32,378 nucleotides of DNA from a virus. Taxonomy: Duplodnaviria > Caudoviricetes. Below, one piece after another: positions 1-27,900 of the stretch (positions are counted from its first letter, which is position 1; the number at the start of each line of letters is the position of its first letter). A program made the translations under genes and the position numbers. The notes under the pieces are model-generated. The model worked only from the letters and a program-made list of their open reading frames with translations, made no database searches and was not told the DNA's origin. The stretch is from positions 1 through 32,378 of IMG/VR virus record IMGVR_UViG_3300030397_000191. One strand, given 5' to 3'.

Positions 1-244
1 ACGCTTCGACTGTCATGCACGAGGATGACACAGGAAGCAAGCGCATAGACGCCTTGTGACGCGCCTGCTCGTCGCTCAGGATCAAGTATTGAGCAGCGTT
101 TGTGTCGTATTGATCGACCTCCCAGCCTGCCTCAGTGACTGTGACGTCCCAACCAAGGCGTTCCTTGAACATACGACGGCGAGCCTGGTACATCCCATCT
201 AAAAGTGGGGTAGTCCATTCATTCGTGTGGATCGTGTAAGTCAT
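1..244 (-). CDS. luxI: Acyl-homoserine-lactone synthase, LuxI family (N-terminal 81 aa; gene continues beyond the left edge)
   Basis: Manual translation from ATG 244, which overlaps the denV stop (ATGA): MTYTIHTNEWTTPLLDGMYQARRRMFKERLGWDVTVTEAGWEVDQYDTNAAQYLILSDEQARHKASMRLLPVSSSCMTVEA. It carries the LuxI signature R22-F26-W32-E42-D44-D47-R68. Confidence 0.88.
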   Translation of the reverse strand, partial: MTYTIHTNEWTTPLLDGMYQARRRMFKERLGWDVTVTEAGWEVDQYDTNAAQYLILSDEQARHKASMRLLPVSSSCMTVEA

Positions 245-630
245 GGGTTCTTCATTCCTGCAAGGCGCTCCGCTATGCGTTCACGATTGAGACGCAAAGC
301 TCGGCGCGTGGGTTTGTAGTCGTTGAACAGATGCTCAGGTGCGGACATGAAGTCAGCTCGTGCATCCTGTGGGTTATGCTTCACATTGAAACCACGTTCG
401 AGACATTCACCATACAGGGCAAACTGCCGATTGAAGCAGAAGAGCAGTTTGTCGTAGAAGAATAGGACGTGACCCTTGCCGAGACGGTAGGTTCGGGGCA
501 GGTCGTCAACGCTGCCACCGCGCATGTGCCATTTTCGTGAGGCACCAAAGATGCGAGGGAGTTCGCGGTACTCGGCAAGCAGGTGCTTGTCGTGAAGCTC
601 GGTCACGGGGACAACATTGATGCGGGTCAT
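241..630 (-). CDS. denV: Pyrimidine-dimer DNA glycosylase (T4 endonuclease V family)
   Basis: MTRIN N-terminus (catalytic Thr2), HLLAEYRELPRIF (catalytic Glu) and LGKGHVLFFYDKL motifs. Start ATG 630 overlaps the upstream stop. Confidence 0.95.
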   Translation of the reverse strand: MTRINVVPVTELHDKHLLAEYRELPRIFGASRKWHMRGGSVDDLPRTYRLGKGHVLFFYDKLLFCFNRQFALYGECLERGFNVKHNPQDARADFMSAPEHLFNDYKPTRRALRLNRERIAERLAGMKNP

Positions 631-833
631 TTCCAAAGCCTTTCACCAAAAGGCAACAGCTCGGGAGACGTCGGCTGCTGGTTGATGAACACAGCGGTGG
701 GCAGCTTCATACCGTTGTAGTAGTCACGGACAGAGCGTGACTCCTTGGCGGAACGCACCGGGTCGATGTTGCGACGGCGCGCTTGCTTGCCGGGTTTGGG
801 TACTTCGTAGAAGTGGTAGTAGCGGTTCTTCAT
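627..833 (-). CDS. Hypothetical protein
   Basis: ATGA overlaps with neighbours on both sides. Confidence 0.7.
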   Translation of the reverse strand: MKNRYYHFYEVPKPGKQARRRNIDPVRSAKESRSVRDYYNGMKLPTAVFINQQPTSPELLPFGERLWK

Positions 834-1135
834 GGGATCAGCTCCTTGGTTGTGACGATGCCCCAGATGAGACGAGCGTCGTGGTATTTGTTCCTGACTA
901 TATCATCTGCTTCCGCAAATGTATAGGCCATTGCTCTGTCCGGATGCTTTGTGTTTGCAGAGCCGGCACACCAGCGAGCCTTGCCCCCGGGTGTGTAACG
1001 GTCATCGGGCCAGGTGAATTTTATACGATACAGACCCTTCGGGATATGGAGGTCACAGTAACCGGAGGCGGTAGCCGGTCGAGGACAGCGCCATGGTCGC
1101 ACTGCCCCCGTGTGTATGGTGGCACGACAGGTCAC
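830..1135 (-). CDS. Hypothetical protein with possible N-terminal Cys/His zinc-binding motif
   Basis: ATGA coupling on both sides; C3...C17...CDLH pattern. Confidence 0.7.
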   Translation of the reverse strand: MTCRATIHTGAVRPWRCPRPATASGYCDLHIPKGLYRIKFTWPDDRYTPGGKARWCAGSANTKHPDRAMAYTFAEADDIVRNKYHDARLIWGIVTTKELIP

Positions 1136-1755
1136 GACAGCATGCCCTCATCACAATCACCACACTTGATGTAGATGCCAGGTTTGCCGTAGGCGTTGAG
1201 GTCGCACATGGGGCAGGTGTACTTGGTACGCTTGCTGCCTTTCTTCTCGCGCTCGATGGGAGCGCCTCGCCATTCGATCACACCGAGGAACTTCACTTCG
1301 GCCAGATCGAACTGCCCATCCTCAATGATGTAGTGCGACACTCGACGACCGGTGCGCTTGCCTCCTGGCGCGCCTGTGCTGCTCGGCATCAGGCCTATTT
1401 CTTCCATCTTCGCTGCCCATTCCTTGTCGTGAGCAGTCTTCGTTTCGAGCTCACCGAAGTGATGCTGCCACAGGTGAACCATCTCATGCACAAGGGTCGA
1501 GAAAATCTCCCGATCTGTGCGGCCGGCAAAGGTGAAGGGGTTGAGGGCAATCTCGTCGACCACCTGGTCCTTCTTCTTTGTGCCCTTGAACGGGTGATGG
1601 CGATAGTAGCCATAGGCACGGCGCATTTCCGCGGACAGGGTGATGAGGCACTGGGGCAGCTCGTTGCCGAAGATCTCTTTGTTGAAGTGGTCATAGGCGT
1701 CTTGCAACACCGTGTAGGTTTCGCGGGTCGGGGTGCTTGCGGGTTTACGTGCCAT
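1132..1755 (-). CDS. SprT-like zinc metalloprotease with C-terminal zinc ribbon
   Basis: TLVHEMVH (HExxH), downstream HDKEW, CPMC...CGDC. GGAG RBS and TAATG coupling at 1755. Confidence 0.88.
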   Translation of the reverse strand: MARKPASTPTRETYTVLQDAYDHFNKEIFGNELPQCLITLSAEMRRAYGYYRHHPFKGTKKKDQVVDEIALNPFTFAGRTDREIFSTLVHEMVHLWQHHFGELETKTAHDKEWAAKMEEIGLMPSSTGAPGGKRTGRRVSHYIIEDGQFDLAEVKFLGVIEWRGAPIEREKKGSKRTKYTCPMCDLNAYGKPGIYIKCGDCDEGMLS

Positions 1756-1985
1756 TAGTTGTTCTCCCATGCTTCGCCAGGGGCGTAGGGGTTTTCATTG
1801 TAAGGGGCGGAGGAGCCTGCTGCGAGCCACAGGAACTCCTGCTCATCGCAATCCTCGGCAATCGTCACATTGCTCAGCGTTGCGCGAAGGGGCCATGAGG
1901 GCTGATAGGCAATGCGGACCTCAGGATCAGCGTCAGTGCTCTCCGCCAGTTCGGTCAGGTGGTCAATGAGTTCGGAGAGAGTCAT
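1755..1985 (-). CDS. Hypothetical phage protein
   Basis: Coupled ORF; MTLSELIDHL...EVRIAYQPSWPL. Confidence 0.75.
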   Translation of the reverse strand: MTLSELIDHLTELAESTDADPEVRIAYQPSWPLRATLSNVTIAEDCDEQEFLWLAAGSSAPYNENPYAPGEAWENN

Positions 1986-2215
1986 TGGGTCACCCCTTCG
2001 ATGAACTTGGACATGGCATACTGCGTGTGGGGTCCTTCGTGGACAGCCAGCACAGACAGGTTGAACACCACGTAGGCGGTGCGCTCGTGCGGGACTTGGC
2101 GCAGCATCGCGGAGGCGGTGTTTGCGTGTCCCTCAATCCATGAGTTGTAGATCGCTGCCGCTTGTGCGCGGAGCGTCTCCATCATTGTGGTGTTGGGTGT
2201 TTTGGGTTCTGACAT
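1982..2215 (-). CDS. Hypothetical protein
   Basis: AGGAG RBS; ATGA overlap with the next gene. Confidence 0.7.
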   Translation of the reverse strand: MSEPKTPNTTMMETLRAQAAAIYNSWIEGHANTASAMLRQVPHERTAYVVFNLSVLAVHEGPHTQYAMSKFIEGVTQ

Positions 2216-2763
2216 ATCTGTCTCCTATCGCGTTTGATAAGGAGACTATAAGCTAGTTCCGGAAGCTGCGCAAGACCAGAACTCTGCTGCCTGCACTTGT
2301 CGCAAAGGTGCGTTCCGAGGTTGATCGGTTTGCCGCAGTTCATGCAACCGCGCTCGGGCTTGGGAGGGAGGAGGCTGTCGAGGTTGCCGGCTTCACGGAG
2401 ACGGTATATTCTGTGGCGACTGACACCGAAGTGCTCAGCGCAGGCCTTGATGGAGTCGAACTCCTGCCTGCCGACTGTGACCTTGATACCCTTCGGGGTG
2501 TATGTGTCCTGCCCCTTCTCGAGCAGTCTCATAATCACCCCTTTGTGGACTCGGAAGTGTTCGGCTGCCGACTTGATAGATGGGAAGTCAAGACCATTGA
2601 TCCTGACGGGCTGGCGATAGTAGCCCTTGCCCTTTCCTACGTCATCAAGTCGACCTGCCAGCTTTGCCTTGTGCAAAGTGTTCGGCTCGAAGCCATGGGC
2701 ACGAGCAGCGGCAGCCATTGAAGGATACCACTGCCCGCGGAATTTAACACGCTTCTTCGGCAT
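2182..2763 (-). CDS. Putative DNA-binding protein with three NUMOD1-like repeats and a C4 zinc finger
   Basis: Repeats WYPSMAAAARAHG / DFPSIKSAAEHFRV / EFDSIKACAEHFGV; CMNC...CDKC. Start reassigned to ATG 2763 (MPKKRVK). Confidence 0.7.
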   Translation of the reverse strand: MPKKRVKFRGQWYPSMAAAARAHGFEPNTLHKAKLAGRLDDVGKGKGYYRQPVRINGLDFPSIKSAAEHFRVHKGVIMRLLEKGQDTYTPKGIKVTVGRQEFDSIKACAEHFGVSRHRIYRLREAGNLDSLLPPKPERGCMNCGKPINLGTHLCDKCRQQSSGLAQLPELAYSLLIKRDRRQICQNPKHPTPQ

Positions 2764-3466
2764 CGGTGTACTCGAGGATTTTGAGGGCCTCACTGTTGTC
2801 AACCTCACCGCCCGTCTTCATCGTCGCGTGGAACAGGACGTGGGGTTTCTGGCTGAAGGGGTCACGCAGGACGGTGATCCAAGGCCGTGCGTCAATGCGG
2901 TATCCCTCGCGGAAGTCACCAAACATGAGCTGACCGTCGGGCGCGTCGGGATCAACGTGCAGCGGGTAGCCGATCAATCGCGCAGGCACACCAGCAGCAA
3001 GACTGTCCTGGAACAGGAAGCGTCCGTCTCGATCCTTCAGGCGCTTCACGTCTCGCGCTGTGTTTTCGCTGCACAGGAACGCTGAGGAAGGCCTGTAGCG
3101 CGCGTCTAGGCGATACACGAGGTCTATGATAGCATCGCTGTCGAGCAGTGCTGTGTTGACGCGCTGAACGCGATTGCTGCAGAACACGCCTTGCGGTTCG
3201 TCGTGATTGCGACCTACCATATAGGCCTTGCCTTCGATCCGACGCAACCCCTCGTAGAGCTCCTGCCCGATGGCAGTGACAATGACTTCCGGAGGAGTCT
3301 CGTCAAGCCAACGCTGGTTGCGTTGAATGATCGTGCCGATCTCGTAGGGCACACTGTGTTCGACCATGTGGATGGTTGCCAGCTGCTTCATCGTGCAGGG
3401 GATGTAGGGGCCCACAATGGACAGCTTTGTTTCGGTGTTGCCACCGTCGATATAGAAGTTGGTCAT
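2744..3466 (-). CDS. Truncated, divergent HK97-fold major capsid protein paralog (240 aa)
   Basis: C-terminal half aligns by eye with the MCP at 13879: IIDLVY, KDRDGRFL, LIGYP, FGDFREGY, VLRDPFSQKPHVLF. ATG 3466 is coupled to the upstream small ORF. Confidence 0.85.
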   Translation of the reverse strand: MTNFYIDGGNTETKLSIVGPYIPCTMKQLATIHMVEHSVPYEIGTIIQRNQRWLDETPPEVIVTAIGQELYEGLRRIEGKAYMVGRNHDEPQGVFCSNRVQRVNTALLDSDAIIDLVYRLDARYRPSSAFLCSENTARDVKRLKDRDGRFLFQDSLAAGVPARLIGYPLHVDPDAPDGQLMFGDFREGYRIDARPWITVLRDPFSQKPHVLFHATMKTGGEVDNSEALKILEYTDAEEAC

Positions 3467-3612
3467 GGGGTCACCAGGAGGTAGGATGTGAGACCAGAAA
3501 GGCCAGCGCCGAGTAGATACCCGATCCGCTGACCTGTCCGATAAGGGCGGGTGGCCTGAACGACCTGGTAGATACACCAGGCCGCCCAGAGTGCTGCGAC
3601 GGTTTCCCGCAT
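3463..3612 (-). CDS. Small hydrophobic protein (49 aa, not in ORF track)
   Basis: MRETVAALWAAWCIYQVVQATRPYRTGQRIGYLLGAGLSGLTSYLLVTP. It fills the gap exactly, with TGATG and ATGA overlaps. Confidence 0.7.
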   Translation of the reverse strand: MRETVAALWAAWCIYQVVQATRPYRTGQRIGYLLGAGLSGLTSYLLVTP

Positions 3613-4505
3613 CAGTCGATCACGGTGTGGGAGCAGTACACCCAGCCGTGTCCGTCCATCTCATCGGCCATGACCTGCGTGGCAGTCTCGATGTACTGCA
3701 TACAGTTCTCGGCATCGAGCACGGCCATGATTGCACCGTTGACGGTGAACGGGGTGACGCCCGGACCATGGATCGCCGGGTTGTCCTCGTCGCCCATCGA
3801 GTAGTAGGCAGGGTCGAAGGTCACGTCTGCTTCTTCGCCGCCGAGCATAAGGAACACGCGGTACCAAAGGGAGCGGAAGTCCATGTCGCCGGCCTCGTCG
3901 ATCAGCGGCGGCAGTGCGTCGTCTTCGTCATCGTCGAGCAATGCGCCCAGATTGATTGCCACGATACCAGCCCCGCGGAGCATGTCGGCCAGTGTGATAC
4001 CGGGATCACCCTCCTCGATGGCCGTGTCCTGACCGCACAGGTCCTTGAGCCAGTCGGGCAGTTCGACTTCCGGCTGAGCACGTTGCCCTGCGAAGGCGGT
4101 CACCTCGTTGTTCTCGGGCATGCCGTGGCAATGACCCATCAGTGTGGCCAGGTCCATGATGAGTTTGGGATCACCGGCCAGCGACTTGGCAATGCGGTCG
4201 GAGACGCGGGAGTGTTCGCCGTGCTCGGGCTCGCCGGGAGTGCTGCGGTTGTGATACAGGCTGAACAGAAACTCAGACAGGCGGCGGATTTTCGGGTCGG
4301 TGATGTTTTCGGGATTGCGGTCCATGGGATCGAGCTCCTGGATGTTGGGTTGGGCGTTGGTGAAACGACCGGTCACTGTGGGAGTGTGTCCCATGAGATT
4401 GTGCCGGTCGATCCGGGTTTGGATCAGGCCTTTGCTGGTGAAGACCGGGAACTGGAAGTACCGCGTCGTGCCATATTCCAGCCAGCGGGCGTATTCCGGG
4501 GTCAC
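3612..4505 (-). CDS. Hypothetical acidic protein (about 297 aa)
   Basis: GTG 4505 overlaps the upstream stop (GTGA); long open frame in the operon direction. Confidence 0.75.
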   Translation of the reverse strand: MTPEYARWLEYGTTRYFQFPVFTSKGLIQTRIDRHNLMGHTPTVTGRFTNAQPNIQELDPMDRNPENITDPKIRRLSEFLFSLYHNRSTPGEPEHGEHSRVSDRIAKSLAGDPKLIMDLATLMGHCHGMPENNEVTAFAGQRAQPEVELPDWLKDLCGQDTAIEEGDPGITLADMLRGAGIVAINLGALLDDDEDDALPPLIDEAGDMDFRSLWYRVFLMLGGEEADVTFDPAYYSMGDEDNPAIHGPGVTPFTVNGAIMAVLDAENCMQYIETATQVMADEMDGHGWVYCSHTVID

Positions 4506-4684
4506 TTGTCCACGCCTTTGACGGTGACTTCCAGGAAGGCGGGCATGCCTTCGACGCAATCCTTGCGGACATAGAGCGTCGGCACCGGGGCGGTGTGCTT
4601 GTCGTCATCGGGCACCTGGTACTGGAGCATGTTCTTCGTCTCCTTCTTGAAGGGCAGCTTCACGGTGGTCGGTTTCTGTGCCAT
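4502..4684 (-). CDS. Hypothetical protein, first gene of the coupled operon
   Basis: AAAGGAG RBS; promoter directly upstream. Confidence 0.8.
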   Translation of the reverse strand: MAQKPTTVKLPFKKETKNMLQYQVPDDDKHTAPVPTLYVRKDCVEGMPAFLEVTVKGVDK

Positions 4685-4715
4685 CGGATATCTCCTTTGT
4701 TGATGTGCAGGTTCT

Positions 4716-4744
4716 AACGTAATTGCTCAGCGTGTGAACGTCAA
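4716..4744 (-). promoter_or_regulatory. Sigma70-type promoter of the leftward operon
   Basis: TTGACG-17 nt-TACGTT. Confidence 0.6.
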
Positions 4745-4749
4745 CGCCA

Positions 4750-5292
4750 TTAGTCTATGATAATCTCTCCTTTCATATACAGGCGCTTAGAGTCGTTGAT
4801 TGCCCGGTGGAGGGTCATGTAGTAAGGGTCCACCCCTCGCTCGCGGTTCTTGCTGCTTAGCTCGTCGATATACTGGATAGCGAACCGACGGATACGGTCC
4901 AGCTGTCGCAGGTGGAGTTTCGGCTGTCGCAGGATGCCACGGATAACGCGGTCAGAGTAGCCCTTCTTCACCTGCTTGGTGCCGTGATATATAGCAGTGG
5001 GCTTGCCAGACAGGTCCAGGTTCCTGACGTAGTGGAGCAGGTGGTAGATGTGTGGCCGCGTGTCTGGGAAATAACAGGCCCACAGGTCCTTTCGGCGTGG
5101 GTCGCGCAATCGCTCGTACTGTCCCCATTCGACCATGATGGCCTCGAACGCGAGACGCTGGAACTTCTGTGGGCATGACGGTGCAGTGACCGCCTTGTGC
5201 AGCTGATCGAGGTGCTTGTAGCGGCATATCTCCTGGTTGATAAGAGCGAGTGACCACCCGCAGTGGGTATGAAGAAGCATGAGAGGGTTCAT
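4750..5292 (-). CDS. Hypothetical protein (about 180 aa)
   Basis: AAGGA RBS before ATG 5292 (MNPLMLLH). Confidence 0.7.
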   Translation of the reverse strand: MNPLMLLHTHCGWSLALINQEICRYKHLDQLHKAVTAPSCPQKFQRLAFEAIMVEWGQYERLRDPRRKDLWACYFPDTRPHIYHLLHYVRNLDLSGKPTAIYHGTKQVKKGYSDRVIRGILRQPKLHLRQLDRIRRFAIQYIDELSSKNRERGVDPYYMTLHRAINDSKRLYMKGEIIID

Positions 5293-5317
5293 GTCGGAGT
5301 CCTTTTTCTGATGCGCG

Positions 5318-5346
5318 ATGATACTGGGAAAACCGGTGCACGTCAA
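5318..5346 (-). promoter_or_regulatory. Sigma70-type promoter
   Basis: TTGACG-17 nt-TATCAT. Confidence 0.7.
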
Positions 5347-5480
5347 TCGCTCACGCTCGCGCGTATATTATTTATTCTCTCAAGTTCTATGAGCTTGTCA
5401 TTGAAAACATTGAACTTTTTAGGCGTCATGCTGTCGCTCACGGGTGTCAAAAGTGCAGTTACGCCTAAATGGGTGTGCAA

Positions 5481-5493
5481 AATCAATCACTTA
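5481..5493 (+). promoter_or_regulatory. IHF-like binding site in an AT-rich intergenic region
   Basis: AATCAATCACTTA matches WATCAANNNNTTR. Confidence 0.45.
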
Positions 5494-5679
5494 GGTGTGG
5501 AAGCCTGAAATAGCGCCAAAGAGCTACTGGGTATAAAAAAGTCAATAAAATCATATATATGTCCATAGAAATTAAAAAAGTGTGTATATATCGCGCGTGA
5601 CGCTACCAGAATTGACTGATAGCGCCAGCGAATTGCAGGGCGAACAGTGCCCAGCAGAACGCGAGGATGGCTAGGTCTG

Positions 5680-6318: not shown

Positions 6319-6481
6319 CTTGCATCTCCTTGGCAATCGCTTTGGCTTCTGTGAGCTGGGGATCATCAGGTGACCATTGCCAGCGCTGGTTGGGTTTGTG
6401 TTTGAGGGCTTTGCGGAGTTTCTGCCGCAGGGGGTATGCGTCGAGGTCGAACTCGCGGCATAAGTGTTTGAGGGTAATCAT
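6302..6481 (-). CDS. Small HTH-like protein (59 aa, not in ORF track)
   Basis: MITLKHLCREFDLDAYPLRQKLRKALKHKPNQRWQWSPDDPQLTEAKAIAKEMQDAKTS; AAAGGA RBS; similar to the C-terminus of the next gene. Confidence 0.8.
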   Translation of the reverse strand: MITLKHLCREFDLDAYPLRQKLRKALKHKPNQRWQWSPDDPQLTEAKAIAKEMQDAKTS

Positions 6482-6508
6482 GTCAGGTTCCTTTGTTGTC
6501 CTGCTTCT

Positions 6509-6538
6509 AAGCTATCATACGTTATATTGCCCTGTCAA
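6509..6538 (-). promoter_or_regulatory. Leftward sigma70-type promoter
   Basis: TTGACA-18 nt-TAGCTT. Confidence 0.6.
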
Positions 6539-6574
6539 CAGATTAAATAAGATCAATTTGATTGCAGTTTCCTA

Positions 6575-6603
6575 TTGCAGGAAGTATTAGGATTTGGTAT
6601 CTT
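6575..6603 (+). promoter_or_regulatory. Rightward sigma70-type promoter
   Basis: TTGCAG-17 nt-TATCTT. Confidence 0.6.
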
Positions 6604-13219: not shown

Positions 13220-13882
13220 ATGACCACGAACACTGAGCAAAAATTCGCACCCCTTGATCTGAAAGAGGTGTCGGAGGAAGGCGAGTTCGAGGGCTACGCT
13301 TCGAAGTTCGGTGACCGCGATCAAGGCGGTGACACGGTCGTGAAGGGTGCCTTTCTGAACTCGCTGGGACGACGGCAGGCCAACGGCATCAAGATGCTCT
13401 GGCAGCACGATCCGTCCTATCCCATCGGCGTCTGGGACGAGGTGAAGGAGGACAAGACGGGACTCTTCGTCAAGGGTCGCATCCTCACCACAGTCCAGAA
13501 GGGACGCGAAACACTTGAACTGATGAGGGCAGGCGTCATTGACGGCATGTCCATTGGTTATCGCACAATCAAGGCCCTGCGCGACGATGCCACTGGCACT
13601 CGTATGTTGAAGGAACTCGATCTGTGGGAAATCTCCCTTGTCACCTTCCCCATGCTGACCTCGGCCACGGTCACGTCAGTCAAGGGCGACTGGGACAAGC
13701 GGACGGTAGAGCGTGTACTGCGTGACGCAGGCATGCCGAACGCGATGGCTGTAAAGCTTATCGCAGGTGGCTGGGATGCCGCCAACACTTCCGGAGCACA
13801 GGGCGATCCTGGCGACGGGCTTAGCGATCTGTCGGAACAACTCCGGCGGATGAATGAAACCCTGCAAAGGAGACTCACATGA
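13220..13882 (+). CDS. Prohead protease, HK97 family
   Basis: FEGYAS, MLWQHD, GMSIGY, LWEISLVTFP. Confidence 0.96.
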   Translation: MTTNTEQKFAPLDLKEVSEEGEFEGYASKFGDRDQGGDTVVKGAFLNSLGRRQANGIKMLWQHDPSYPIGVWDEVKEDKTGLFVKGRILTTVQKGRETLELMRAGVIDGMSIGYRTIKALRDDATGTRMLKELDLWEISLVTFPMLTSATVTSVKGDWDKRTVERVLRDAGMPNAMAVKLIAGGWDAANTSGAQGDPGDGLSDLSEQLRRMNETLQRRLT

Positions 13883-15198
13883 AAGACTTCATGTACCCCG
13901 AGGGCCCGCTCGAAACCAAGGACGCGGGCAATGGCGGTGATGGTGGCAATGCGCCGGATACCGTCGAAATCAAACGGCAGCTGGATGCCTTCGACACCAC
14001 GCTGACGGCCTTCATGAAGAAGACCGACGAGAACCTGGAACTGGCTAAGAAGGGCAAGGACGTCGATCCCCTCGACACCGAGTCCGGCAAAAAGATGGCT
14101 GCTGACCTTGATGGCCTGAAGAAGTCCATCGAGAACCTTCGCCTGAAGGAAGCCCGCCCGATCCTGACCGCGCCTGATGGGACCAAGACCCAGATGACCG
14201 AGGAACAGATCGAGCACAAGAAGCAGTTCGAGCGCTTCTTCCGCAAAGGCGTCGAGTCCGAGGAACTCCAGGCCATCGAGCAGAAGACGTTGTCCGTGGG
14301 TTCCGATCCCGACGGCGGCTATACGGTTCCTGTCCAGATGGAAACGGCCATCGACCGTGTTGTCACGGAAATCTCCAACGTGCGCCAGATCGCTCGTGTG
14401 GTTCAGGTCTCGACTGCGTCTTACAAGCGCATGACGGGTCAGGGCGGTGCGACCTCCGGCTGGGTTGGTGAACAGGAGTCGCGTCCTCAGACCAACACCC
14501 CGCAACTCGCGGTGCAGGAATACCCTGTCATGGAGCTCTACGCGATGCCGGCGGCCACGCAGTCCATCTTGGATGATGCGGCCATCAACATCGACAACTG
14601 GCTCGCCGACGAGGTTGCCATCGAGTTCGCCTACCAGGAAGGTGCTGCCTTCGTGAACGGCAACGGCTCTGCGAAACCGAAGGGCTTCATGCAGGGTGAC
14701 AAGGTGGCGAATGACTCTTGGGCCTGGGGCAAGCATGGCTACATCGCAACGGGCCAGTCGGGTGATTGGGCGGACAACTCGTCCGATCCGGGTGCAGAGG
14801 CGACCAATATCATCGACCTGGTCTATGCCTTGAAGCCGACCTTCCGTTCCAACGCTCGCTTCACCATGAACCGCAAGACGGTGTCTTCGGTCATGAAGCT
14901 GCGTGACGCGGATGGCCGTCCTCTGTGGCACACGAACCTGCGCGAAGGTCAGCCCGACACGCTGATGGGCTATCCGATCACCGAACTGGAAGACATGCCG
15001 GATATCGCAGCTGACAGCTACTCGATCTCCTTCGGCGACTTCCGCCGCGGTTACATCATCGTGGACCGCATCGGTACCCGGGTTCTGCGCGATCCGTTCT
15101 CGTCCAAGCCTTACATCCTGTTCTACACCACCAAGCGTGTGGGCGGCGGCATGGGCCACTGGGACGCGATCAAGCACCTGAAGTTCGGCGCTTCCTGA
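13879..15198 (+). CDS. Major capsid protein, HK97 fold
   Basis: DGGYTVP, AFVNGNG..KPKG, FGDF, RDPFSSKPYILFYTTKRVGG. Confidence 0.97.
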   Translation: MKDFMYPEGPLETKDAGNGGDGGNAPDTVEIKRQLDAFDTTLTAFMKKTDENLELAKKGKDVDPLDTESGKKMAADLDGLKKSIENLRLKEARPILTAPDGTKTQMTEEQIEHKKQFERFFRKGVESEELQAIEQKTLSVGSDPDGGYTVPVQMETAIDRVVTEISNVRQIARVVQVSTASYKRMTGQGGATSGWVGEQESRPQTNTPQLAVQEYPVMELYAMPAATQSILDDAAINIDNWLADEVAIEFAYQEGAAFVNGNGSAKPKGFMQGDKVANDSWAWGKHGYIATGQSGDWADNSSDPGAEATNIIDLVYALKPTFRSNARFTMNRKTVSSVMKLRDADGRPLWHTNLREGQPDTLMGYPITELEDMPDIAADSYSISFGDFRRGYIIVDRIGTRVLRDPFSSKPYILFYTTKRVGGGMGHWDAIKHLKFGAS

Positions 15199-18665: not shown

Positions 18666-20742
18666 AAGACTGTTCGTTCAGGTCCGCGCTGATCTGTCCC
18701 AGCTCTCCGGGGAGCTTCAGGAGGGTGTGACCCAAACCCAACGGGCCACCCAACAGATGTCTCGTCAATGGGAGACTGTGTCAACGAGCATCGAGAACCT
18801 GACCACCGACTTGCAGAAAGGCATTATCACGCAGGGGCAGTATATGTCCCAGCTGAACCGCCACGCCTCTGCAATCTCGAAATTGGGCGGAGACTACCGG
18901 GAGGCGCAGCGCCAGGTGCATGGCTATGCTGCGTCTCTTCGGCAGGCTGCTACGGTGGCCCCGCCCGCCTTCGATGCTCGACCCGTTCGGAACTTCGGTC
19001 GTTCTGTGGGTATGGCTCGAATGCAGATGATGAACCTGGGTTACCAGATCAATGACGTTGGGATGACGCTTGCCACAGGCATGAACCCGCTCACGGTCCT
19101 GATCCAGCAGGGTTCTCAAATCCTTCAAATCTACGCTGGGCAAGGCGGCGTCCGAGCAGCACTGTCTGATATCGGCAAGATCATTTCCGGCCTCGGCAAG
19201 CGCCTGTGGCCTTTGGCTGTTATCGCTGGGGGCTTCGGCATCCTGCAACGGGAGATCAACAAGACGACCGACGTGTCTGTCTCGTTCGGTGACACTGTGG
19301 CTGCTGTGTTCCAGGTGCTCGGTCGAAAGATCATGGGTGTTATCGGTGGGCCGCTTCAATGGCTCAAGGAGAAGTTCGGGGAGGTCCTGGACTTCATTGC
19401 CGAGTGGACGCCGAAGATCATCAATGTGGTGGTAGGCGTCATTGCCGGTTCCGTTCGAGCCATCGGTGCATTGTGGAACGCACTGCCTGACCTGTTCAGT
19501 GACGCCTTCGGCACGATCCGTAACTACGCCGTTGACGTGGCTGAGTGGCTCGGTATGTTGTTCCTCGTGACTATCCCCGAGAACGTGCTCGTTGGGGTGA
19601 ACAAGATCGTCCAGTCCTTCGTGTTTGCCTTCCGTGCCATCAAAGGCATCTGGGAGGCCTTCCCCGATATCCTGCGCATCGCCATCGCCGAGGCGGTCAA
19701 CTGGATCGTCACTGGTGTGGAGAAGATGGTCAACGGTGCCGTGGATGGCATCAACAAACTGATCGAGGGGATTAACCAGCTTCTTGAGTTTGTGGGTGCT
19801 GACAAGGCGCTTGAGCTGTTTGGCTTCTCAGGCACGTTGGGCGAACTCGACCAAGCAAGCCTTGACCAGTTCCGGATGGATGCCTCAGGCAGTATCGGTG
19901 ACGTTATGGCTGAGGTAGGTGCTGCCGCTGCCACAGCCTTCAATGAGAACTTCGTTTCGGGTGTATCGCTGCCGAGTGCGCCCAACCTCGACGCATGGCG
20001 TGTTGAGGTCGGTGACTCCTTCGGTCAGCTGGGTGCCGAGTTCGCTCGTATCTTCACTGAGACCATGAGCCGGGATTGGGCGGGTGACTTCTTCGATGAG
20101 GTTCGGGCCCAGGCGATCCAGAACGCCATGAACCGGATTGCCCAAGGCGTCGAAGGTGTGGGTGATGCTGCTCGCCGTGCCGGCGAAGAAGTCGAAGACA
20201 TGATGAAGACGCTTGAGGATGGTTTGCAGACCGCAGCTGACAACCTTGCCCAAGTGTTCGGCAATGCGTTTGAACGATTGGCTGAGACGGGTCGCTTCAC
20301 GTTCAGCGACTTCATCCAGGACCTTAACCAGCTCATCATCAAATCGACCTCGGAGCTGTTGCAGGAAGAGCTGTCCAATATGTTCAAGACACTGGCCACG
20401 TCGAAAGGCGGGCTTGGGTCACTGTTCTCCAACCTGTTCACTGGGCTGTTCGGCGGAGGCAATATGTTCGGCGCCCGTGCTCGAGGCGGTGTGGAAATGC
20501 CGTGGCGGAACTTCATCGCTGGTGAAGAGGGTGCTGAGCTTATCAGCCAGGATGGTCCTTCGGGCGCTCGTCGCGTAACTACTGCGGGTCAAACTCGACA
20601 CATGATGCAGAGCATGGGAGGTGCGGCACCGCAGATCACTATGATCGTCAACACGCCTGACGTGGAGAGCTTCCAGAAATCACAATCGCAGCTTGCCTCT
20701 CGAATGGGCATGTTCTTGCAGAGAGGGCAGAGGAACCAATAA
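18643..20742 (+). CDS. Tape measure protein
   Basis: Ala/Gly-rich helical sequence; NLGYQINDV...IQQGSQI motif; C-terminal TPDVESFQKSQSQ. Confidence 0.93.
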   Translation: MALGRLIERLFVQVRADLSQLSGELQEGVTQTQRATQQMSRQWETVSTSIENLTTDLQKGIITQGQYMSQLNRHASAISKLGGDYREAQRQVHGYAASLRQAATVAPPAFDARPVRNFGRSVGMARMQMMNLGYQINDVGMTLATGMNPLTVLIQQGSQILQIYAGQGGVRAALSDIGKIISGLGKRLWPLAVIAGGFGILQREINKTTDVSVSFGDTVAAVFQVLGRKIMGVIGGPLQWLKEKFGEVLDFIAEWTPKIINVVVGVIAGSVRAIGALWNALPDLFSDAFGTIRNYAVDVAEWLGMLFLVTIPENVLVGVNKIVQSFVFAFRAIKGIWEAFPDILRIAIAEAVNWIVTGVEKMVNGAVDGINKLIEGINQLLEFVGADKALELFGFSGTLGELDQASLDQFRMDASGSIGDVMAEVGAAAATAFNENFVSGVSLPSAPNLDAWRVEVGDSFGQLGAEFARIFTETMSRDWAGDFFDEVRAQAIQNAMNRIAQGVEGVGDAARRAGEEVEDMMKTLEDGLQTAADNLAQVFGNAFERLAETGRFTFSDFIQDLNQLIIKSTSELLQEELSNMFKTLATSKGGLGSLFSNLFTGLFGGGNMFGARARGGVEMPWRNFIAGEEGAELISQDGPSGARRVTTAGQTRHMMQSMGGAAPQITMIVNTPDVESFQKSQSQLASRMGMFLQRGQRNQ

Positions 20743-21371
20743 TGGCTTTTCACGAAACACGCTTCCCGACCAACATCGCCTTCGGTGCCCGTGGCGGCCC
20801 GAAACGTAAGACCATCATTGCTGCCTCCGGGTCCGGCTTCGAACACCGGAACTCACAGTGGGCAGACTCGAAGCGGGAGTACAACGCGGGCTACGGTGTC
20901 AAGAGTCTGGACGATATCCATGATGTGGTCGAGTTCTTCGAGGAACGCCGGGGCATGTTGCACGGCTTCCGCTGGAAAGACAAGTTCGACTGGAAGTCCT
21001 GCAAGCCGAAAGAGACGCTGGCGTTCAATGACCAGACCATCGGTACGGGTGACGGCAGCACCACGACGTTCCAGTTGACCAAGACCTACGGCTCGTCCTA
21101 TGCGCCCTACACCCGGGATATTAAGAAACCCGTCAGTGGCACTGTGTTGATCGGCGTCAATGGAGCTGACACGGGAGGCTCGGGTTGGTCGGTTGATTTG
21201 ACCACAGGGGTCATCACGTTCAGCGTTGCACCCACATCCGGTCACGCGATCACAGCGGGTTATGAGTTCGACGTTCCTGTCCGCTTCGATACCGACTACC
21301 TTCAAATTGACCTGACTGCATTCCAAGCGGGACAGGTTCCCGATATCCCCATTGTGGAGATCAGAGTATGA
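20742..21371 (+). CDS. Distal tail protein (DUF2460, GTA g12-like)
   Basis: MAFHETRFP, FFEERRG.LHGFRWKD, FDVPVRFDTD. Confidence 0.95.
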   Translation: MAFHETRFPTNIAFGARGGPKRKTIIAASGSGFEHRNSQWADSKREYNAGYGVKSLDDIHDVVEFFEERRGMLHGFRWKDKFDWKSCKPKETLAFNDQTIGTGDGSTTTFQLTKTYGSSYAPYTRDIKKPVSGTVLIGVNGADTGGSGWSVDLTTGVITFSVAPTSGHAITAGYEFDVPVRFDTDYLQIDLTAFQAGQVPDIPIVEIRV

Positions 21372-22276
21372 GAACCGATATTCCGGCGGGACTACAAACG
21401 CACCTCGAAACCCGGGAGACCACGCTCGCCTGGTGCTGGAAGATCACGAAGACTGACGGCAGTGTTCTCGGCTTCACAAACCACGACAGAGACCTCACCT
21501 TTGACAGCACGACCTACGAGGCTGCCACCGGCTTCCTTGGTACAGAGATCGAAAGCCAACTCGGCATGTCTGTGGATAACATGGACGTCTATGGCGCAGT
21601 CGACTCCGACAACATCACCGAAACCGATATCGAGGCGGGTCTCTATGACAACGCCGAGGTGGTTGTCTATCTGGTTAACTGGGAGGACGTGTCTGAGCGT
21701 GTCGTTATGAAGAAGGGAAACCTGGGCGAGGTCAAACGGGGAGCCACCATGTTCCAGACCGAAGTTCGTGGTATCTCGAACCAGATGCAGAACGTCAAAG
21801 GTCGGATGTATGAATACGGCTGTGACGCTTTGCTTGGGGATGGGCGTTGTGCTAAGACAGGTCTGTCTGGGGCAAGCTTCACCGGCAATGGCACAGTTGC
21901 CTCCACTAACGGCTACTCGTCAATCGTTGCCACGGGGCTTGACTCCTACAGCAACAGCTGGTTCAGTCGGGGCAAGGTCACTTTCACGTCAGGAGCTAAT
22001 AACGGCATTGTCCGCGAGGTTAAGGCACACTTCAACACCGACGGCGTGGTGACCATCAGCCTGTGGGAACAGACCCCTTTTGAGATACAGGCGTCCGATA
22101 CCTTTGACGTTCTGGCTGGCTGTGACAAGACGTTCAAGACCTGTAAGGCCAAGTTCAGCAACGAAGAGAACTTCCGTGGCTTCCCCCATATCCCGGGCAG
22201 TAACACGGTTGTCCAGTATGCGAACACAGGCGATCCGAACTTTGATGGAGGAGGGAACTTCGTTGGTAAAGACTGA
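21368..22276 (+). CDS. Baseplate hub protein (DUF2163/BR0599, GTA g13-like)
   Basis: GFTNHDRDL, CDALLGD.RC, GCDKTFKTC, NFRGFPHIPG. Confidence 0.95.
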   Translation: MRTDIPAGLQTHLETRETTLAWCWKITKTDGSVLGFTNHDRDLTFDSTTYEAATGFLGTEIESQLGMSVDNMDVYGAVDSDNITETDIEAGLYDNAEVVVYLVNWEDVSERVVMKKGNLGEVKRGATMFQTEVRGISNQMQNVKGRMYEYGCDALLGDGRCAKTGLSGASFTGNGTVASTNGYSSIVATGLDSYSNSWFSRGKVTFTSGANNGIVREVKAHFNTDGVVTISLWEQTPFEIQASDTFDVLAGCDKTFKTCKAKFSNEENFRGFPHIPGSNTVVQYANTGDPNFDGGGNFVGKD

Positions 22277-22697
22277 GGATATCATTGCCGAGGCGAGGAC
22301 CTGGATCGGTACGCCCTACCACCACCAGGCTTCGCTTAAAGGCGTCGGGTGTGATTGCATTGGATTGGTTCGCGGTATCTTCCGCGAGCTTTATGGCTTC
22401 AACCCTGCCGAGAATATCAACTATTCCGCTGACTGGGGTGACAGCAATGGGAATGAGGACATAATCGCCGCTGGGTTCAAATATATGGAGCCAGTAGCAC
22501 TCGAGGATATGCAACCGGGTGACATGGTCGCAGTGCGCTGGGCAAAGGGACGTGTGGCCAAGCATGTGATGATCCTGACCGAGAACGGGAAGGCTATTCA
22601 TTCCTACAACAACTCGCCCACAACCGAGATACATTTGAACGACTGGTGGAGGCGTCGCATCGTCTACGTCTTCCGGTTCCCGCAGGAGGTGAAGTAA
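22263..22697 (+). CDS. NlpC/P60 cell-wall peptidase (GTA g14-like)
   Basis: ARTWIGTPYHHQ, GCDCIGLVRG, AKH..I; probable TTG start after GGAGG. Confidence 0.93.
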   Translation: MVKTEDIIAEARTWIGTPYHHQASLKGVGCDCIGLVRGIFRELYGFNPAENINYSADWGDSNGNEDIIAAGFKYMEPVALEDMQPGDMVAVRWAKGRVAKHVMILTENGKAIHSYNNSPTTEIHLNDWWRRRIVYVFRFPQEVK

Positions 22698-22698
22698 C

Positions 22699-25600
22699 AT
22701 GGCAGGTCTATTGCTCGCAGGCGTCGGTGCCGCAATTGGTTTAAGCATCGGGGGCACGTTCCTCGGGATCAGCGCGGTTGTGATCGGCCAGACAATCGGT
22801 TCCGTTATCGGTACAGCGATTGATAACTTCTTGTTTGCTCCTACGTTGAAGTCGACACAGGAAGGGCCTCGATTGAATGAGGCCAACGTCATGACCTCTG
22901 TGGAAGGGACCAACATCTACCGAGGCTATGGTCGGTTCAAAGTTGCGGGCAACGTCATCTGGGCAACTCGTCTGCGTGAGGAGGTTGTCAAGGAGACAAC
23001 AAAGACCGGCGGTAAAGGTGGCGGCGGTGGCAGCGAGGTGACAACGACCACCTACAACTACTATGCCAACTTTGCAGTCGGTCTGTGTGAGGGTGAAATC
23101 CTCGACGTTCACCGCGTGTGGGCTGATGGCAAGCTGCTCGATCTGTCTGACTACACCTATCGGATTTACAAGGGCACTGAGACCCAGAACCCGGACTCAC
23201 TCATCGAGACTAAAGAGGGCAGCGGCAATGCTCCTGGCTATCGGGGGTTGGCCTACATCATCTTCGAGGATATGCAGATCAACAAGTTTGGTAACCGCAT
23301 CCCCCAAATGACATTCGAGATCACTAAGCCGATCACTCGATCCGACAATGATGCTGTAGGCGACCTCATCACGGGTATTGATTTGATCCCGGGAACCACT
23401 GAGTTCGGCTATGACCCCCGCGAGATTGACCAAGTGATCTATGAGGGCAGTGATATCGTTGAGCGCCGCGTAGAGAACAATCACACCGGCGATGGCAAGA
23501 GTGACTGGGAACACGCACTCGACCAGATGGAGGTGAACCTTCCCAACTGCAACATCGTCACCTTTGTGGTTACCTGGTTTGGTGATGACTTGCGCATTGG
23601 TAACTGCACACTTAAGCCGAAGGTGGAGAACCACACCAAAAGGACAACGCTTGCTGGAGAAACTTCCGAAATCGGTTGGCGTGTGGCACAGCTTGATCGA
23701 GCGGATGCCGGGATCATCTCAACCTATGAGGGCTACTCAGCCTTCGGGGGTACCCCCAATGACGTCTCAGTCTATCAAGCCATCCTCGACCTGAAGTCCC
23801 GTGGCTTCGAGGTTCTGTTCTACCCCTTCATCATCATGGACGTTGAGGCAGGCAACACCTTGCCGGACCCCTACAGTGACAACGCAGCTACCGTGGGTCA
23901 GCCCGTGTATCCGTGGCGAGGTCGTATCACCTGCTCACCCGCGGCAGGGTATGTGGGGTCGGTCGACAAAACAGCCACCGCTCGAACTCAGGTTGACGCC
24001 TTCCTTGGGACTGCTGACGCCAGTGAGTTCTCGGGGTCCAACGGCGCAGTGACCTACAGCGGCGCCGCTGAGTGGGGCTTCAAACGCTTCACGCTTCATA
24101 TGGCTGAGTTGTGCCGTCAGGCTGGTGGCGTAGACTACTTCATTGTCGGGACTGAGATGGTGGGTGCCTCCACAATCCGGGATGAGAACAACGACTTCCC
24201 ATTTGTCGAGGGGTTGATTGACCTTGCGGCTGAGGTGTCTGTCTTGCTCCCATCAGCACAGATCGGTTATGCTGCCGACTGGTCGGAATTCCACTCTCAT
24301 CGCCCGAGCGACGGCACCAATGATGTGTACTTCCACCTGGACCCCTTGTGGGCTGATAGCAATGTCGACTTCATTGGCATTGACAACTACATGAAGCTGT
24401 CTGACTGGCGTGACTCCGATGACCACGCTGACTACGGCACTGGCAACGACGTGTATGGTCGACCGAAGGGTGAGTCTATCTATGATCTGACTTACCTCAA
24501 GGGCCAGGTTGCAGGTGGTGAGGACTTCGACTATTTCTATGCTTCCACAGCTGACCGAGTGTCACAGACACGGACGACGATCACTGATGGCACTTCGGTC
24601 TTCGACGTTGATCCTAGTGACGCCGACCGCACTCTTGCTGTCAGCACGGGTGGGGGTATCGCCTATGCTGACTTTGGCTCTGGCGCTACTCGAAGCCAAG
24701 ACACCGCCTTCAGCTGTAAGGTAACGCTGCCGTCTTCTCCCACCGACGGGGTTCTGTTTGAACGGGGTGGCTCCGGTACTGGTATGATTGTCTGTATCCG
24801 TGACTCCGGAACCTACCTTCGCGCTAGAGCAGGGTCCGGGGGTGAGACTGTTGCCGGTGGCGGAACGCCTTCAACCGCGAATTTGATTGTTGGGGATGAG
24901 CTTATCTCTAATCTGTCCCAGTACTTCGACGATGAGGTCCATGAGGTTTGCTGGGACGTTCAGATGGGTAACCCCGGTCAGATGCGTCTGTGGATTGATG
25001 GCGATCTTATCATTGATGCCTACTCCTCAGGCAACCATACCACCTGGACTGGCTCAGGTTCCGGTACCTACATTGGCACTTCAGGATCAGCTACCAACAT
25101 CAGTGGAGAACCGACAACCGGATGGTCAGCAGGTTCAACTGGAGCGAGCGATCTGTCCATGTATGACCAGGCGTTTGACTGGAGTGCGCCCAGCGAACCT
25201 TGGGTCTTCCGTCAAAAGGACCTGGTGAATTGGTGGTCCAACAAGCACTACAATCGTCCCGATGGCAACAGCCTGATCCACCCGACGGATTGGGTTCCGG
25301 AGAGCAAGCCGATCATCTTCACTGAGTACGGCTGTCCCGCGATCAACAAAGGCACGAACCAACCCAACGTGTTCTATGACCCGAAGTCGTCTGAGAGCTT
25401 CGTGCCCTACTTCTCGTCGGGCGGTCGGGATGATGAAATCCAACGCCAGTATATCCGGGCGATGATGGAGTACTGGTCTGACGGATCGAACAACCCCACG
25501 TCGAGTGTCTACGCGGCGAAGATGGTTGATGAGACCCGCATGAACTACTGGTCCTACGATGCTCGACCTTGGCCGACGTTCCCCCTTGACGGTGACACCT

Positions 25601-27900
25601 GGGCTGACCAAGCGAACTGGCAGTATGGTCACTGGATCAGTGGTCGTATCGACACGGTCTATATCCCCGACTTGCTCGAGCAGTTGGCTGAGGACTACAA
25701 CATCACTGTAGACTACGACTTCTCTCGTGCCTATGGCTCATGTGATGGGTTCGTGCTTCAGACAAAAACGTCCTTCCGCTCAGCTGTTGAGCCTCTCGCC
25801 TCGCTGTTCCTGTTTGATATCATCGAAAGCGGTGACACGATCAAAGCAGTGAGCCAGCAGGAGAGCCAGTCACGAGCGACTGTGTCACTGGACGATATCG
25901 CTGACGCAGGGACTGAGGAGCCTGTCACGTTCACCGAGAAACCGAGCCACGAGCTCCCGGGATCAATGACTATCAAGTACCTCGACCTGTTCAACGACTA
26001 TGAGCTTGCCGCTGTGTCTCAACGCCGCGAGGTGGTTGACAGTGAGTCCGAACCGAGCAGCGACACTCCTGTGGTCATGGATTACTCCCGGGCCCAGCAG
26101 TTGGTTGACAAGCTGCTCTATTCCGTTTGGGCGAAGCGAACTGTGAGTGAGTTTGGTTTGCTTCCTGAGTTTCTGTATCTCGAGGCGGGCGACGTTGTGA
26201 CTATCAGCACCGATGACTTCGAGAAGCCGGTTCGTATCCAAGGGATTGCCGATGCTGCGTTCCGTCAGATTAGCGGGCTGTCCTTCGACCTCGGTATCTT
26301 CCAACCGGGTGGTGGCGCGTCACGCACTCAACCCCTCACTGTGGTCAATGTATCGACCTCGCCGGTGATTGCCCTCATGGACTTGCCTGTTCTCCAGAGC
26401 ACGGATATTGAGTACCAGCCCTACGCTGCTGCATATGTCAACCCGTGGCCTGGCGTCAACGTCTATAAGTCGATCACCGATAGTAACTACGGCTTGGACA
26501 GCACACTACTTGCTCCCACTGTGATCGGTGAGCTGACTGATCCCTTCGACGTTGCGTCAACCACTGACACCTGGGACTACAGCCAGGAGTTGAAGGTCTT
26601 GATCTACTCGGGCGAGCTCGAGAGCCTTGACGAGCAGAACGTCTTGAATGGTAGTAACGCCATTGCCATCGAGAACAGCTCTGGGGGCTGGGAGATCGTG
26701 CAATTCGTCACGGCAACGCTGACTGGCACCCGGACCTACACACTCACCAAACTGCTTCGAGGTCAGTTGGGTACTGAGGATAACATGGAAGCCAACCTGG
26801 CAGCGGGGGCACGTATCGTGGTCCTTGAGTCCACGGTCCAACAGATGTCTCTTGGGATCAATGATATCAACCGCGAGTACTACTTCCAGTATGGTCCCGC
26901 AGACAAGGACATTGGTGACCCGACCTACCTGACCACCCAGAAGACATTCACCGGTCGAGGCCTTAAGCCTTACAGCCCTGTGGATGTCCGGGGTACGGGA
27001 CACAGCTGGGACCTCGCGACCATTCGAGGACTGACTCCCACAGAGTCCTTGTCGCCGGGTATCGTTGAGACCACCTGGGGTGACAGCTACCGGGCTAACC
27101 CCGTTGTGCTTGAGGGTTCTGCCTTCTTGCCTGATAACCCCGGAACCTCCGGAGTGCTGTTCAAGCATGGTGGTACATCCTACGGCTGTATCATCGCGGT
27201 CTATGACGGTGTGTTCCGCTTACAGTTTGGTGAGTCCAATGATGCTAGAGCGGATGCCTACGTAACTGACGATGACCGGGCCACCCTCGACATACCTCTC
27301 GAGCTTATCCCGTTCGATGGTCAGGAGCATGAGTTCATCCTCTGTATTGACCCCGATGCTGATGGCGGGGGTTATGTTCGTCTTTGGATTGACGGGAAGT
27401 TCATGGGAGAAGGTCGAGAACCTAACGGAAACCATATCGGCAGCAATGGGGGTAGTGCTTACTGGACCGGCACCAACCCCACCTTCTGGGCCTATGCAGA
27501 TGCTACCGAGGGGACAGGTCCTCAGGGGTGGGAAGGTGACGGCACTGACCCATACCTCGGCTATGGCACGACTGATACCCTCGACCTCCACAACAACCAG
27601 TCTGTGGCCATGACCGGTGATATCACGATCTCTTGGAAGCGTCGGACACGTATCAACGGCGACAGCTGGGACCAGGAGGAGGTGCCTCTGAATGAAGCCT
27701 TCGAGAAGTATGAGGTGGACGTCCTCGATCCCACCGGTACCGTGGTCAGAACTCTGACCGTGACAGATGCCACTGAGGTGACATATACTGAGGCACAATA
27801 TAACGCCGACGGGATAACGGGCCCGTTTGATGTAATCGTCTATCAGATCAGCGAAACCGTTGGTCGAGGCACAGGAAGGAGGGCCACAATCAATGGCTGA
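22699..27900 (+). CDS. Megatron-like baseplate / host-specificity protein (GTA g15-like) with two inserted domains
   Basis: GNVIWAT, PGYRGLAY, GYAADWSE, IGIDNY, FTEYGCPAINKGTNQPNVF, LLRGQLGTE, W.RRTR. Confidence 0.95.
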   Translation: MAGLLLAGVGAAIGLSIGGTFLGISAVVIGQTIGSVIGTAIDNFLFAPTLKSTQEGPRLNEANVMTSVEGTNIYRGYGRFKVAGNVIWATRLREEVVKETTKTGGKGGGGGSEVTTTTYNYYANFAVGLCEGEILDVHRVWADGKLLDLSDYTYRIYKGTETQNPDSLIETKEGSGNAPGYRGLAYIIFEDMQINKFGNRIPQMTFEITKPITRSDNDAVGDLITGIDLIPGTTEFGYDPREIDQVIYEGSDIVERRVENNHTGDGKSDWEHALDQMEVNLPNCNIVTFVVTWFGDDLRIGNCTLKPKVENHTKRTTLAGETSEIGWRVAQLDRADAGIISTYEGYSAFGGTPNDVSVYQAILDLKSRGFEVLFYPFIIMDVEAGNTLPDPYSDNAATVGQPVYPWRGRITCSPAAGYVGSVDKTATARTQVDAFLGTADASEFSGSNGAVTYSGAAEWGFKRFTLHMAELCRQAGGVDYFIVGTEMVGASTIRDENNDFPFVEGLIDLAAEVSVLLPSAQIGYAADWSEFHSHRPSDGTNDVYFHLDPLWADSNVDFIGIDNYMKLSDWRDSDDHADYGTGNDVYGRPKGESIYDLTYLKGQVAGGEDFDYFYASTADRVSQTRTTITDGTSVFDVDPSDADRTLAVSTGGGIAYADFGSGATRSQDTAFSCKVTLPSSPTDGVLFERGGSGTGMIVCIRDSGTYLRARAGSGGETVAGGGTPSTANLIVGDELISNLSQYFDDEVHEVCWDVQMGNPGQMRLWIDGDLIIDAYSSGNHTTWTGSGSGTYIGTSGSATNISGEPTTGWSAGSTGASDLSMYDQAFDWSAPSEPWVFRQKDLVNWWSNKHYNRPDGNSLIHPTDWVPESKPIIFTEYGCPAINKGTNQPNVFYDPKSSESFVPYFSSGGRDDEIQRQYIRAMMEYWSDGSNNPTSSVYAAKMVDETRMNYWSYDARPWPTFPLDGDTWADQANWQYGHWISGRIDTVYIPDLLEQLAEDYNITVDYDFSRAYGSCDGFVLQTKTSFRSAVEPLASLFLFDIIESGDTIKAVSQQESQSRATVSLDDIADAGTEEPVTFTEKPSHELPGSMTIKYLDLFNDYELAAVSQRREVVDSESEPSSDTPVVMDYSRAQQLVDKLLYSVWAKRTVSEFGLLPEFLYLEAGDVVTISTDDFEKPVRIQGIADAAFRQISGLSFDLGIFQPGGGASRTQPLTVVNVSTSPVIALMDLPVLQSTDIEYQPYAAAYVNPWPGVNVYKSITDSNYGLDSTLLAPTVIGELTDPFDVASTTDTWDYSQELKVLIYSGELESLDEQNVLNGSNAIAIENSSGGWEIVQFVTATLTGTRTYTLTKLLRGQLGTEDNMEANLAAGARIVVLESTVQQMSLGINDINREYYFQYGPADKDIGDPTYLTTQKTFTGRGLKPYSPVDVRGTGHSWDLATIRGLTPTESLSPGIVETTWGDSYRANPVVLEGSAFLPDNPGTSGVLFKHGGTSYGCIIAVYDGVFRLQFGESNDARADAYVTDDDRATLDIPLELIPFDGQEHEFILCIDPDADGGGYVRLWIDGKFMGEGREPNGNHIGSNGGSAYWTGTNPTFWAYADATEGTGPQGWEGDGTDPYLGYGTTDTLDLHNNQSVAMTGDITISWKRRTRINGDSWDQEEVPLNEAFEKYEVDVLDPTGTVVRTLTVTDATEVTYTEAQYNADGITGPFDVIVYQISETVGRGTGRRATING

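Follow-up and report, generated by a model that had tools for sequence, protein, structure and literature searches.

A loop-less capsid homologue of likely GTA origin, optional and under selection, in a siphophage and its relatives

Phage T4 has a second HK97-fold gene in its genome, gp24, a paralogue of its own major capsid protein (MCP) that builds the vertices; it is a regular part of the virion and is encoded near the head genes. In the SaPIbov5 system, as far as the available portions of its published accounts go, a capsid homologue of one element, Ccm, disturbs the head assembly of another; it is the tool of a satellite against a phage, forms no shells alone, keeps the delta domain, N-arm and E-loop, and joins pentamers (PMC8569155, PMC6893505). 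TgrL, encoded by phage phiCbK, can suppress the GTA production of the host; the accessible part of its description presents it as the product of an early gene with relatives among host genes, and as a transcription factor that targets gafYZ, without a capsid fold (PMC10688885). The MCP of the Rhodobacter capsulatus GTA (RcGTA), Rcc01687, is a protein of 398 aa with known structures (g5; PDB 6TB9/6TBA; PMC7296036). Finally, the sensors Avs7, Avs8 and Avs10 take MCPs as ligands and bind them on the A-domain surface, and the available text on them describes no decoy (bioRxiv 10.64898/2026.01.04.697583).

The phage gene described here adds a variant, of putative function, to the known capsid-homologue interference proteins; full-text literature searches, covering few subscription papers, found no description of such a short capsid gene. 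Rcc01687 is its best PDB match and shares its diagnostic A-domain and C-terminal motifs, and the short capsid family nests among Rcc01687 orthologues in both trees reported below. In contrast to g5, the gene is neither full-length (240 aa) nor part of a chromosomal head-tail cluster: it is phage-encoded outside any head module, evolves far faster, and its product lacks the delta domain, the E-loop, part of the N-arm and an A-domain insertion. It differs from T4 gp24 in being optional, remote from the head genes and closer to GTA. Like Ccm, it is a capsid homologue of one element that may act on the head assembly of another and presumably forms no shells alone; unlike Ccm it is loop-less, and whereas Ccm serves a satellite against a phage, here it is the phage that carries a protein of likely host-GTA origin, with a putative action. 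With TgrL it would share early expression, relatedness to host genes and suppression of GTA production, although by a different kind of protein. The A-domain surface recognised by the Avs sensors corresponds to its best-kept part.

The window (the whole stretch of 32,378 nucleotides analysed here) is a 32-kb piece of a siphophage whose plus strand encodes terminase, portal, protease, MCP, tail and a GTA-like tail tip. Its own MCP of 439 aa (13879..15198) lies within the terminase-portal-protease head module, and the GTA-like tail-tip module (20742..27900) comprises DUF2460, hub, NlpC/P60 and GTA TIM-barrel proteins; this full head-tail module is unlike satellites that lack head genes. A leftward arm of small genes, including ones for an SprT-like protein and endonuclease V, occupies the minus strand, and here an ATG-started ORF of 240 aa is found at 2744..3466 (P0001), 10.4 kb from the MCP gene and on the opposite strand, in agreement with the preliminary description, which had placed it about 10 kb away. 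The protein matches the Pfam family Phage_capsid (PF05065) with an E value of 3.6e-33 over profile positions 74-279 of 280 and a score of 115.6 bits against a cut-off of 24.2, so that by profile the P-domain/A-domain core is present, and it shares 33% identity with the window's own MCP across 183 aligned residues. A sequence search of the PDB returned three matches, the best being the RcGTA capsid chain 6tb9 (E 7.9e-40). The diagnostic motifs quoted earlier, such as KPHVLF where the phage's own MCP has KPYILF, occur as given in both proteins, and the variants that had been described as GTA-type are indeed present in 6tb9 when aligned to the short capsid protein. The ORF is confirmed as a real gene, and an artefact or shadow ORF is rejected.

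The start codon of the short capsid gene overlaps the stop codon of an upstream 49-aa ORF (3463..3612, minus strand) as ATGA, and at the other end its final codons share bases with an ATG of the following ORF, overlaps on both sides that look as they do in a coupled operon. Downstream on the same strand (241..2808) lie a NUMOD/HTH ORF, small ORFs, the gene for the SprT-like protein (1132-1770) and that for endonuclease V (241-636). No structural-family matches were found in this arm. Scans of window positions 1-8500 found five promoter matches against 4.0 in shuffled sequence and eight terminators against 7.4, none of either tied to the short capsid gene; its position alone suggests early expression. 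Among nine related records, the NUMOD/HTH ORF directly downstream (2182-2808) is confined to the window and L030, a partial contig. Upstream, two syntenic ORFs of 315 aa (3612-4559) and 198 aa (4750-5346) belong to no known family and, with identities of 30-34% and 30-37%, change as fast as the short capsid gene.

Searching with the window's own MCP reached six near-complete relatives of 44-47 kb (MW202777, OP947159, G002, G003, G004 and G005), whose MCPs are 68-71% identical to the window's. Scans of IMG/VR and of JGI metagenomes with the short capsid protein or the family alignment returned no relatives. The short capsid gene sits at one fixed site, between the homologue of the 49-aa ORF and SprT, in MW202777, G002 and G005, and at the same site in L030; sequence and profile searches did not find it in OP947159, G003 and G004, which share the head module, and it is thus present in three of the six near-complete genomes and absent from three. 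Hidden divergent copies in G003 and G004 were considered and rejected, as the slots hold other ORFs and the profile search gives one match each. Three fragments (L003, L005 and L192) do not span the site and were left out of this count. In G003 (L021-L023) the head module is conserved and there is no tblastn match to four GTA-like tail-tip genes; by this comparison its tail tip is swapped.

Beyond these genomes, a first protein search listed 17 proteins from 671 candidates, eight of them relatives of 226-243 aa with 53-86% identity, and a search with the MW202777 orthologue gave four matches among 2245 candidates, three of 261 aa. A profile search of 1.84 billion representatives yielded, among the best 150, at least five proteins of 231-261 aa that match the whole profile. 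The family ranges from 226 to 261 aa, and several members come from contigs whose length, 45-47 kb, is that of these uncultured aquatic phages; down to 32% identity, members retain the start motif, the length and the deletion pattern. Annotations of 'major capsid protein' for products of 230-260 aa in these genomes should not be read as the virion shell protein. In a protein of 376 aa, P0035, the first part has 98% identity to the N-terminal 55% of the short capsid protein of MW202777 and is followed by unrelated sequence; the protein lies on a contig of 1320 bases and is either a fusion or a misassembly.

What distinguishes the family from full-length capsid proteins is a set of shared losses. 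In an alignment of 16 family rows to the R. capsulatus GTA protein (L050, a 401-aa ORF), residues 117-131, 148-182, 249-265 and 338-342 of the latter are missing in at least 90% of the rows, together with most of the delta domain; the losses include 15 residues after the N-arm, 35 that take in the E-loop, and 17 of the A-domain insertion. The alignments place the delta/scaffold domain and the full N-arm among the absent parts, and the extended E-loop is absent from the 16-row alignment, with a short loop in its place in the structural model. Residues 148-152 of the 398-residue RcGTA protein belong to the extended loop, according to the part of the structural report available (PMC7296036), and fall within the 35-residue gap. 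The gene had been described as a truncated MCP; the absence of the delta domain bears this out, but internal deletions common to the whole family show that it is no plain truncation.

Along the protein (minus strand throughout), residues 1-24 (3395..3466) are a short family-conserved N-terminus replacing the delta domain and most of the N-arm, with M1, F4 and G8 invariant in 12 of 12 family rows, and residues 35-40 (3347..3364) are a short turn where full-length MCPs have the 35-residue stretch that includes the E-loop. Residues 59-84 (3215..3292) make a long helix, presumably the spine helix of the HK97 fold, strongly remodelled relative to the GTA MCP (identity to GTA 0.20, vs 0.79 within GTA). 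Residues 105-190 (2897..3154), presumably the A-domain, are the most GTA-like part, with segments 105-126 and 145-168 kept and 127-144 remodelled, and the hairpin tip at residues 201-209 (2840..2866), presumably the P-loop, is the family's best conserved segment. An AlphaFold2 model built on a 143-row alignment has a mean pLDDT of 94.2 and a pTM of 0.88, a confidence that leans on the approximately 125 rows that are ordinary MCPs, full-length or fragmentary; a model from a 13-row alignment has a pLDDT of 30. In the former, strands 31-34 and 41-50 are joined by a short loop and residues 59-84 form a 26-residue helix, and the protein is predicted to be a compact HK97 core fold. In related shells, the accessible parts of two structural accounts describe E-loops and N-arms as making key contacts within and between capsomers, with A-domains packing at the capsomer centre (PMC8569155, PMC10276861), and since the short capsid protein lacks the former it is probably unable to form a shell. 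A natural loop-less HK97 core would be useful for studying capsomer contacts and capsid sensing.

The relationship to GTA capsids is concentrated in the second half of the protein. Residues 105-236 have a mean identity of 52% to 22 Rhodobacterales GTA MCPs and 40% to eight MCPs of the phage's own group, the GTA proteins having been chosen among 79 loci ordered by similarity to the query, which is a bias; over residues 24-104 the corresponding values are 22% and 20%. The same GTA clade also takes in two rows drawn from a class-wide sample that was ordered by similarity to the own MCP. In segments 105-126, 145-168 and 201-222 the likeness to GTA matches that between family members, and segments 59-104 and 127-144 are remodelled. 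At 44 columns that differ between GTA and phage MCPs, the window protein agrees with GTA at 15, with phage at two and with neither at 27, and GTA-type residues outnumber phage-type ones in all 16 family rows (9-15 vs 2-6 of 44); distant family members have lost the GTA-type tip residues.

Phylogenetic reconstruction agrees with this pattern. In an LG+G4 tree of 65 rows and 212 columns, from which eight of the 22 GTA MCPs were left out for speed and which carries a long-branch warning inside the family, the 12 family rows form one clade (100/100) placed inside the Rhodobacterales clade (100/99) and apart from phage MCPs (100/100). A mixture-model tree of 39 rows again places the family inside the Rhodobacterales GTA clade (SH-aLRT 99). 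The stem branch of the family is long (0.9-1.3). When the family was forced to group with phage MCPs, the AU test rejected the arrangement under LG+G4 (p-AU 0.037) and did not reject it under the mixture model (p-AU 0.127). The proposal that the gene was captured from a GTA therefore stands in so far as the family clusters apart from the phage's own MCP in both trees, and is tempered by the divided AU result; on these comparisons a GTA origin through one old capture is very probable, and a recent duplicate of the own MCP is rejected as its source. The Loktanella GTA capsid gene at L060:7395-8645, which gene calling splits into ORFs of 225 and 153 aa, was left out of the trees.

The gene is under purifying selection in both halves. 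Against the L030 orthologue, 69% identical, dN/dS is 0.24 for the whole gene, 0.23 for residues 1-104 and 0.22 for residues 105-240, and comparison genes give 0.10 (SprT), 0.17 (endonuclease V) and 0.26 (a 228-aa ORF); dS is saturated against more distant orthologues, so that only L030 and close contigs inform on selection. Parts of the gene are also present on contigs from four other studies, in every case with at least 90% identity; 40 of their 54 differences are listed, and 27 of these 40 are synonymous (23% expected), none makes a stop, and the sole indel is of three bases. The first half had been called degenerate, which these ratios and the confident model of that region contradict: it is remodelled and conserved within the family, and ten columns hold family-specific conserved residues, such as R49, R138 and E187. 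The suggestion that the gene has been retained intact, and is not a neutrally decaying copy, is borne out. Orthologues are nevertheless only 34-43% identical to one another, vs 74-84% in the same columns for own MCPs (four genomes) and 76-91% for the 22 GTA MCPs. Taken together, this is an optional, intact, selected, loop-less capsid homologue that is likely GTA-derived.

The host may belong to the Rhodobacterales. Behind two uncultured relatives, the 13 further matches listed for the tail hub are all to Rhodobacterales phages (45-50% identity), namely those of Roseobacter, Rhodobacter, Paracoccus and Dinoroseobacter, and the best match to the endolysin is from an Octadecabacter phage (54%). 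Against such a host, the highest-scoring matches of the own MCP and of the hub come from alphaproteobacterial genomes that lie outside the Rhodobacterales clade. Matches to the own MCP with an E value of 1e-40 or lower occur in 64 of 251 sampled alphaproteobacterial genomes. Also against it, the relative OP947159 has been assigned to Desulfofustis through CRISPR spacers sharing no less than 80% identity, in a community that includes a Rhodobacteraceae species as well, according to the available part of that study (bioRxiv 10.1101/2023.02.06.527410). The 'Gammaproteobacteria' label of the L030 contig was set aside as host evidence because the contig carries this phage's gene order.

Among the functions considered, we tentatively prefer, at somewhat less than even likelihood, that the protein is a non-assembling mimic that binds GTA capsid subunits and stalls host GTA heads. 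A short capsid gene captured from a Rhodobacterales GTA would present a GTA-like A-domain surface that binds GTA capsid subunits, and a subunit without the E-loop, the delta domain and part of the N-arm would stall GTA head assembly in the infected cell. The phage might benefit in that fewer GTA heads could take phage DNA or tails, or in that fewer GTA subunits would mix into its related capsid. This reading is favoured because it explains why the source was the host GTA and not the own MCP: a GTA-derived protein would have a built-in preference for GTA subunits, and for most other jobs duplicating the own MCP would have been the simpler route. Only a fraction of a population makes GTA, which would limit the benefit to the phage. 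Ccm, as a capsid homologue that disturbs another element's heads (PMC8569155, PMC6893505), and TgrL, as a phage factor that represses GTA production (PMC10688885), would be partial precedents in what the accessible accounts tell of them. Counting against a GTA-binding mimic is the divergence of the orthologues (34-43% identical) though GTA MCPs are 76-91% identical, since a nearly fixed target should hold its binder tighter. In addition, a neighbour's E-loop would lie on the spine helix, to go by the available text on related shells (PMC8569155), and with this helix so remodelled only part of the interface could remain. The 27 of 44 diagnostic columns at which the window protein agrees with neither side, the loss of GTA-type tip residues in distant members, the AU result under the mixture model, the long stem branch and the host indications outside the Rhodobacterales also count against it.

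A stronger form of the GTA-binding proposal, that phages have converted the gene for a host GTA capsid protein into a chain-terminating poison for GTA heads and kept it through deep divergence, is possible and rather doubtful. Were it true, GTA production would harm phages enough for selection to favour a dedicated structural counter-weapon, GTAs would act partly as anti-phage interference, and a single-gene switch for blocking GTA heads would be at hand. Why alphaproteobacteria keep GTAs, and whether these interfere with phages, is an open question, and a loop-stripped, selected, probably GTA-derived phage gene makes such interference directly testable with one small gene.

The main rival, which we regard as possible and less likely than the GTA-binding mimic, is a soluble decoy for capsid-sensing immune receptors, whose A-domain would occupy the sensor without triggering it and so shield the phage's own MCP. 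Fast divergence under purifying selection, patchy presence and a non-structural position are what a changing target would lead one to expect, and the binding of A-domains by Avs7, Avs8 and Avs10 fits; but the same source, in its available portion, has these sensors recognising the core fold with variable extensions unbound (bioRxiv 10.64898/2026.01.04.697583), so that a bare core might trigger them and not block. In Caulobacter, GTA release is under the control of an NLR-like system that structural components of the GTA may trigger, whereas R. capsulatus lyses by holin-endolysin instead, as reported in the accessible part of one account (PMC13236601). A decoy for the own MCP would also be more simply derived from that MCP, the literature search found no published capsid decoy, and the two ORFs upstream diverge as fast, so that speed alone is weak evidence for a decoy. 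If this explanation were true, the protein would be a whole-fold capsid mimic, and no such anti-defence protein was found described.

It is improbable that the protein binds the phage's own MCP, or that of a rival phage or prophage, as a holding chaperone, timing device or exclusion factor. Of the 89 columns on which GTA and phage MCPs agree it keeps 55, and the sampled alphaproteobacterial genomes often contain related capsids, but every family row is closer to GTA than to the own MCP and the gene is missing from half of the near-complete relatives with the same head module. There is a slim chance that the protein does something that has nothing to do with capsids. That it is a regular minor part of the virion, for instance a vertex protein of the T4 gp24 kind, is very unlikely: the core is confidently modelled as HK97-type and vertex-building capsid paralogues exist, Ccm forming pentamers in the available description (PMC8569155), but the gene lies on the opposite strand 10 kb from the head module, in an arm without structural-family matches, is not conserved with that module, and its product is without the E-loop, the delta domain and part of the N-arm, which are all retained in Ccm. 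A decaying captured fragment without function, with which fast divergence and loss from half of the relatives would agree, is refuted by the selection data, the open frame, start and deletion pattern held to 32% identity, and the family-specific conserved residues.

Several other features of the window are recorded here. Between the divergent arms (6918-7007) there are three copies of a 16-nt repeat. A 45-nt direct repeat occurs at 7706-7750 and 7992-8036, with copies 78% alike that each lie immediately upstream of a sigma-70-like match (7756 and 8047), and may be a promoter element that was duplicated where the rightward arm begins. At 1733 aa, the large GTA-like tail protein (22699-27900) exceeds that of MW202777 and OP947159 by about 400 residues. 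A stand-alone gene for an NAD-ligase N-terminal domain (Nlig-Ia; 8097-8411) precedes the small terminase and is kept in all six near-complete relatives with 54-69% identity.
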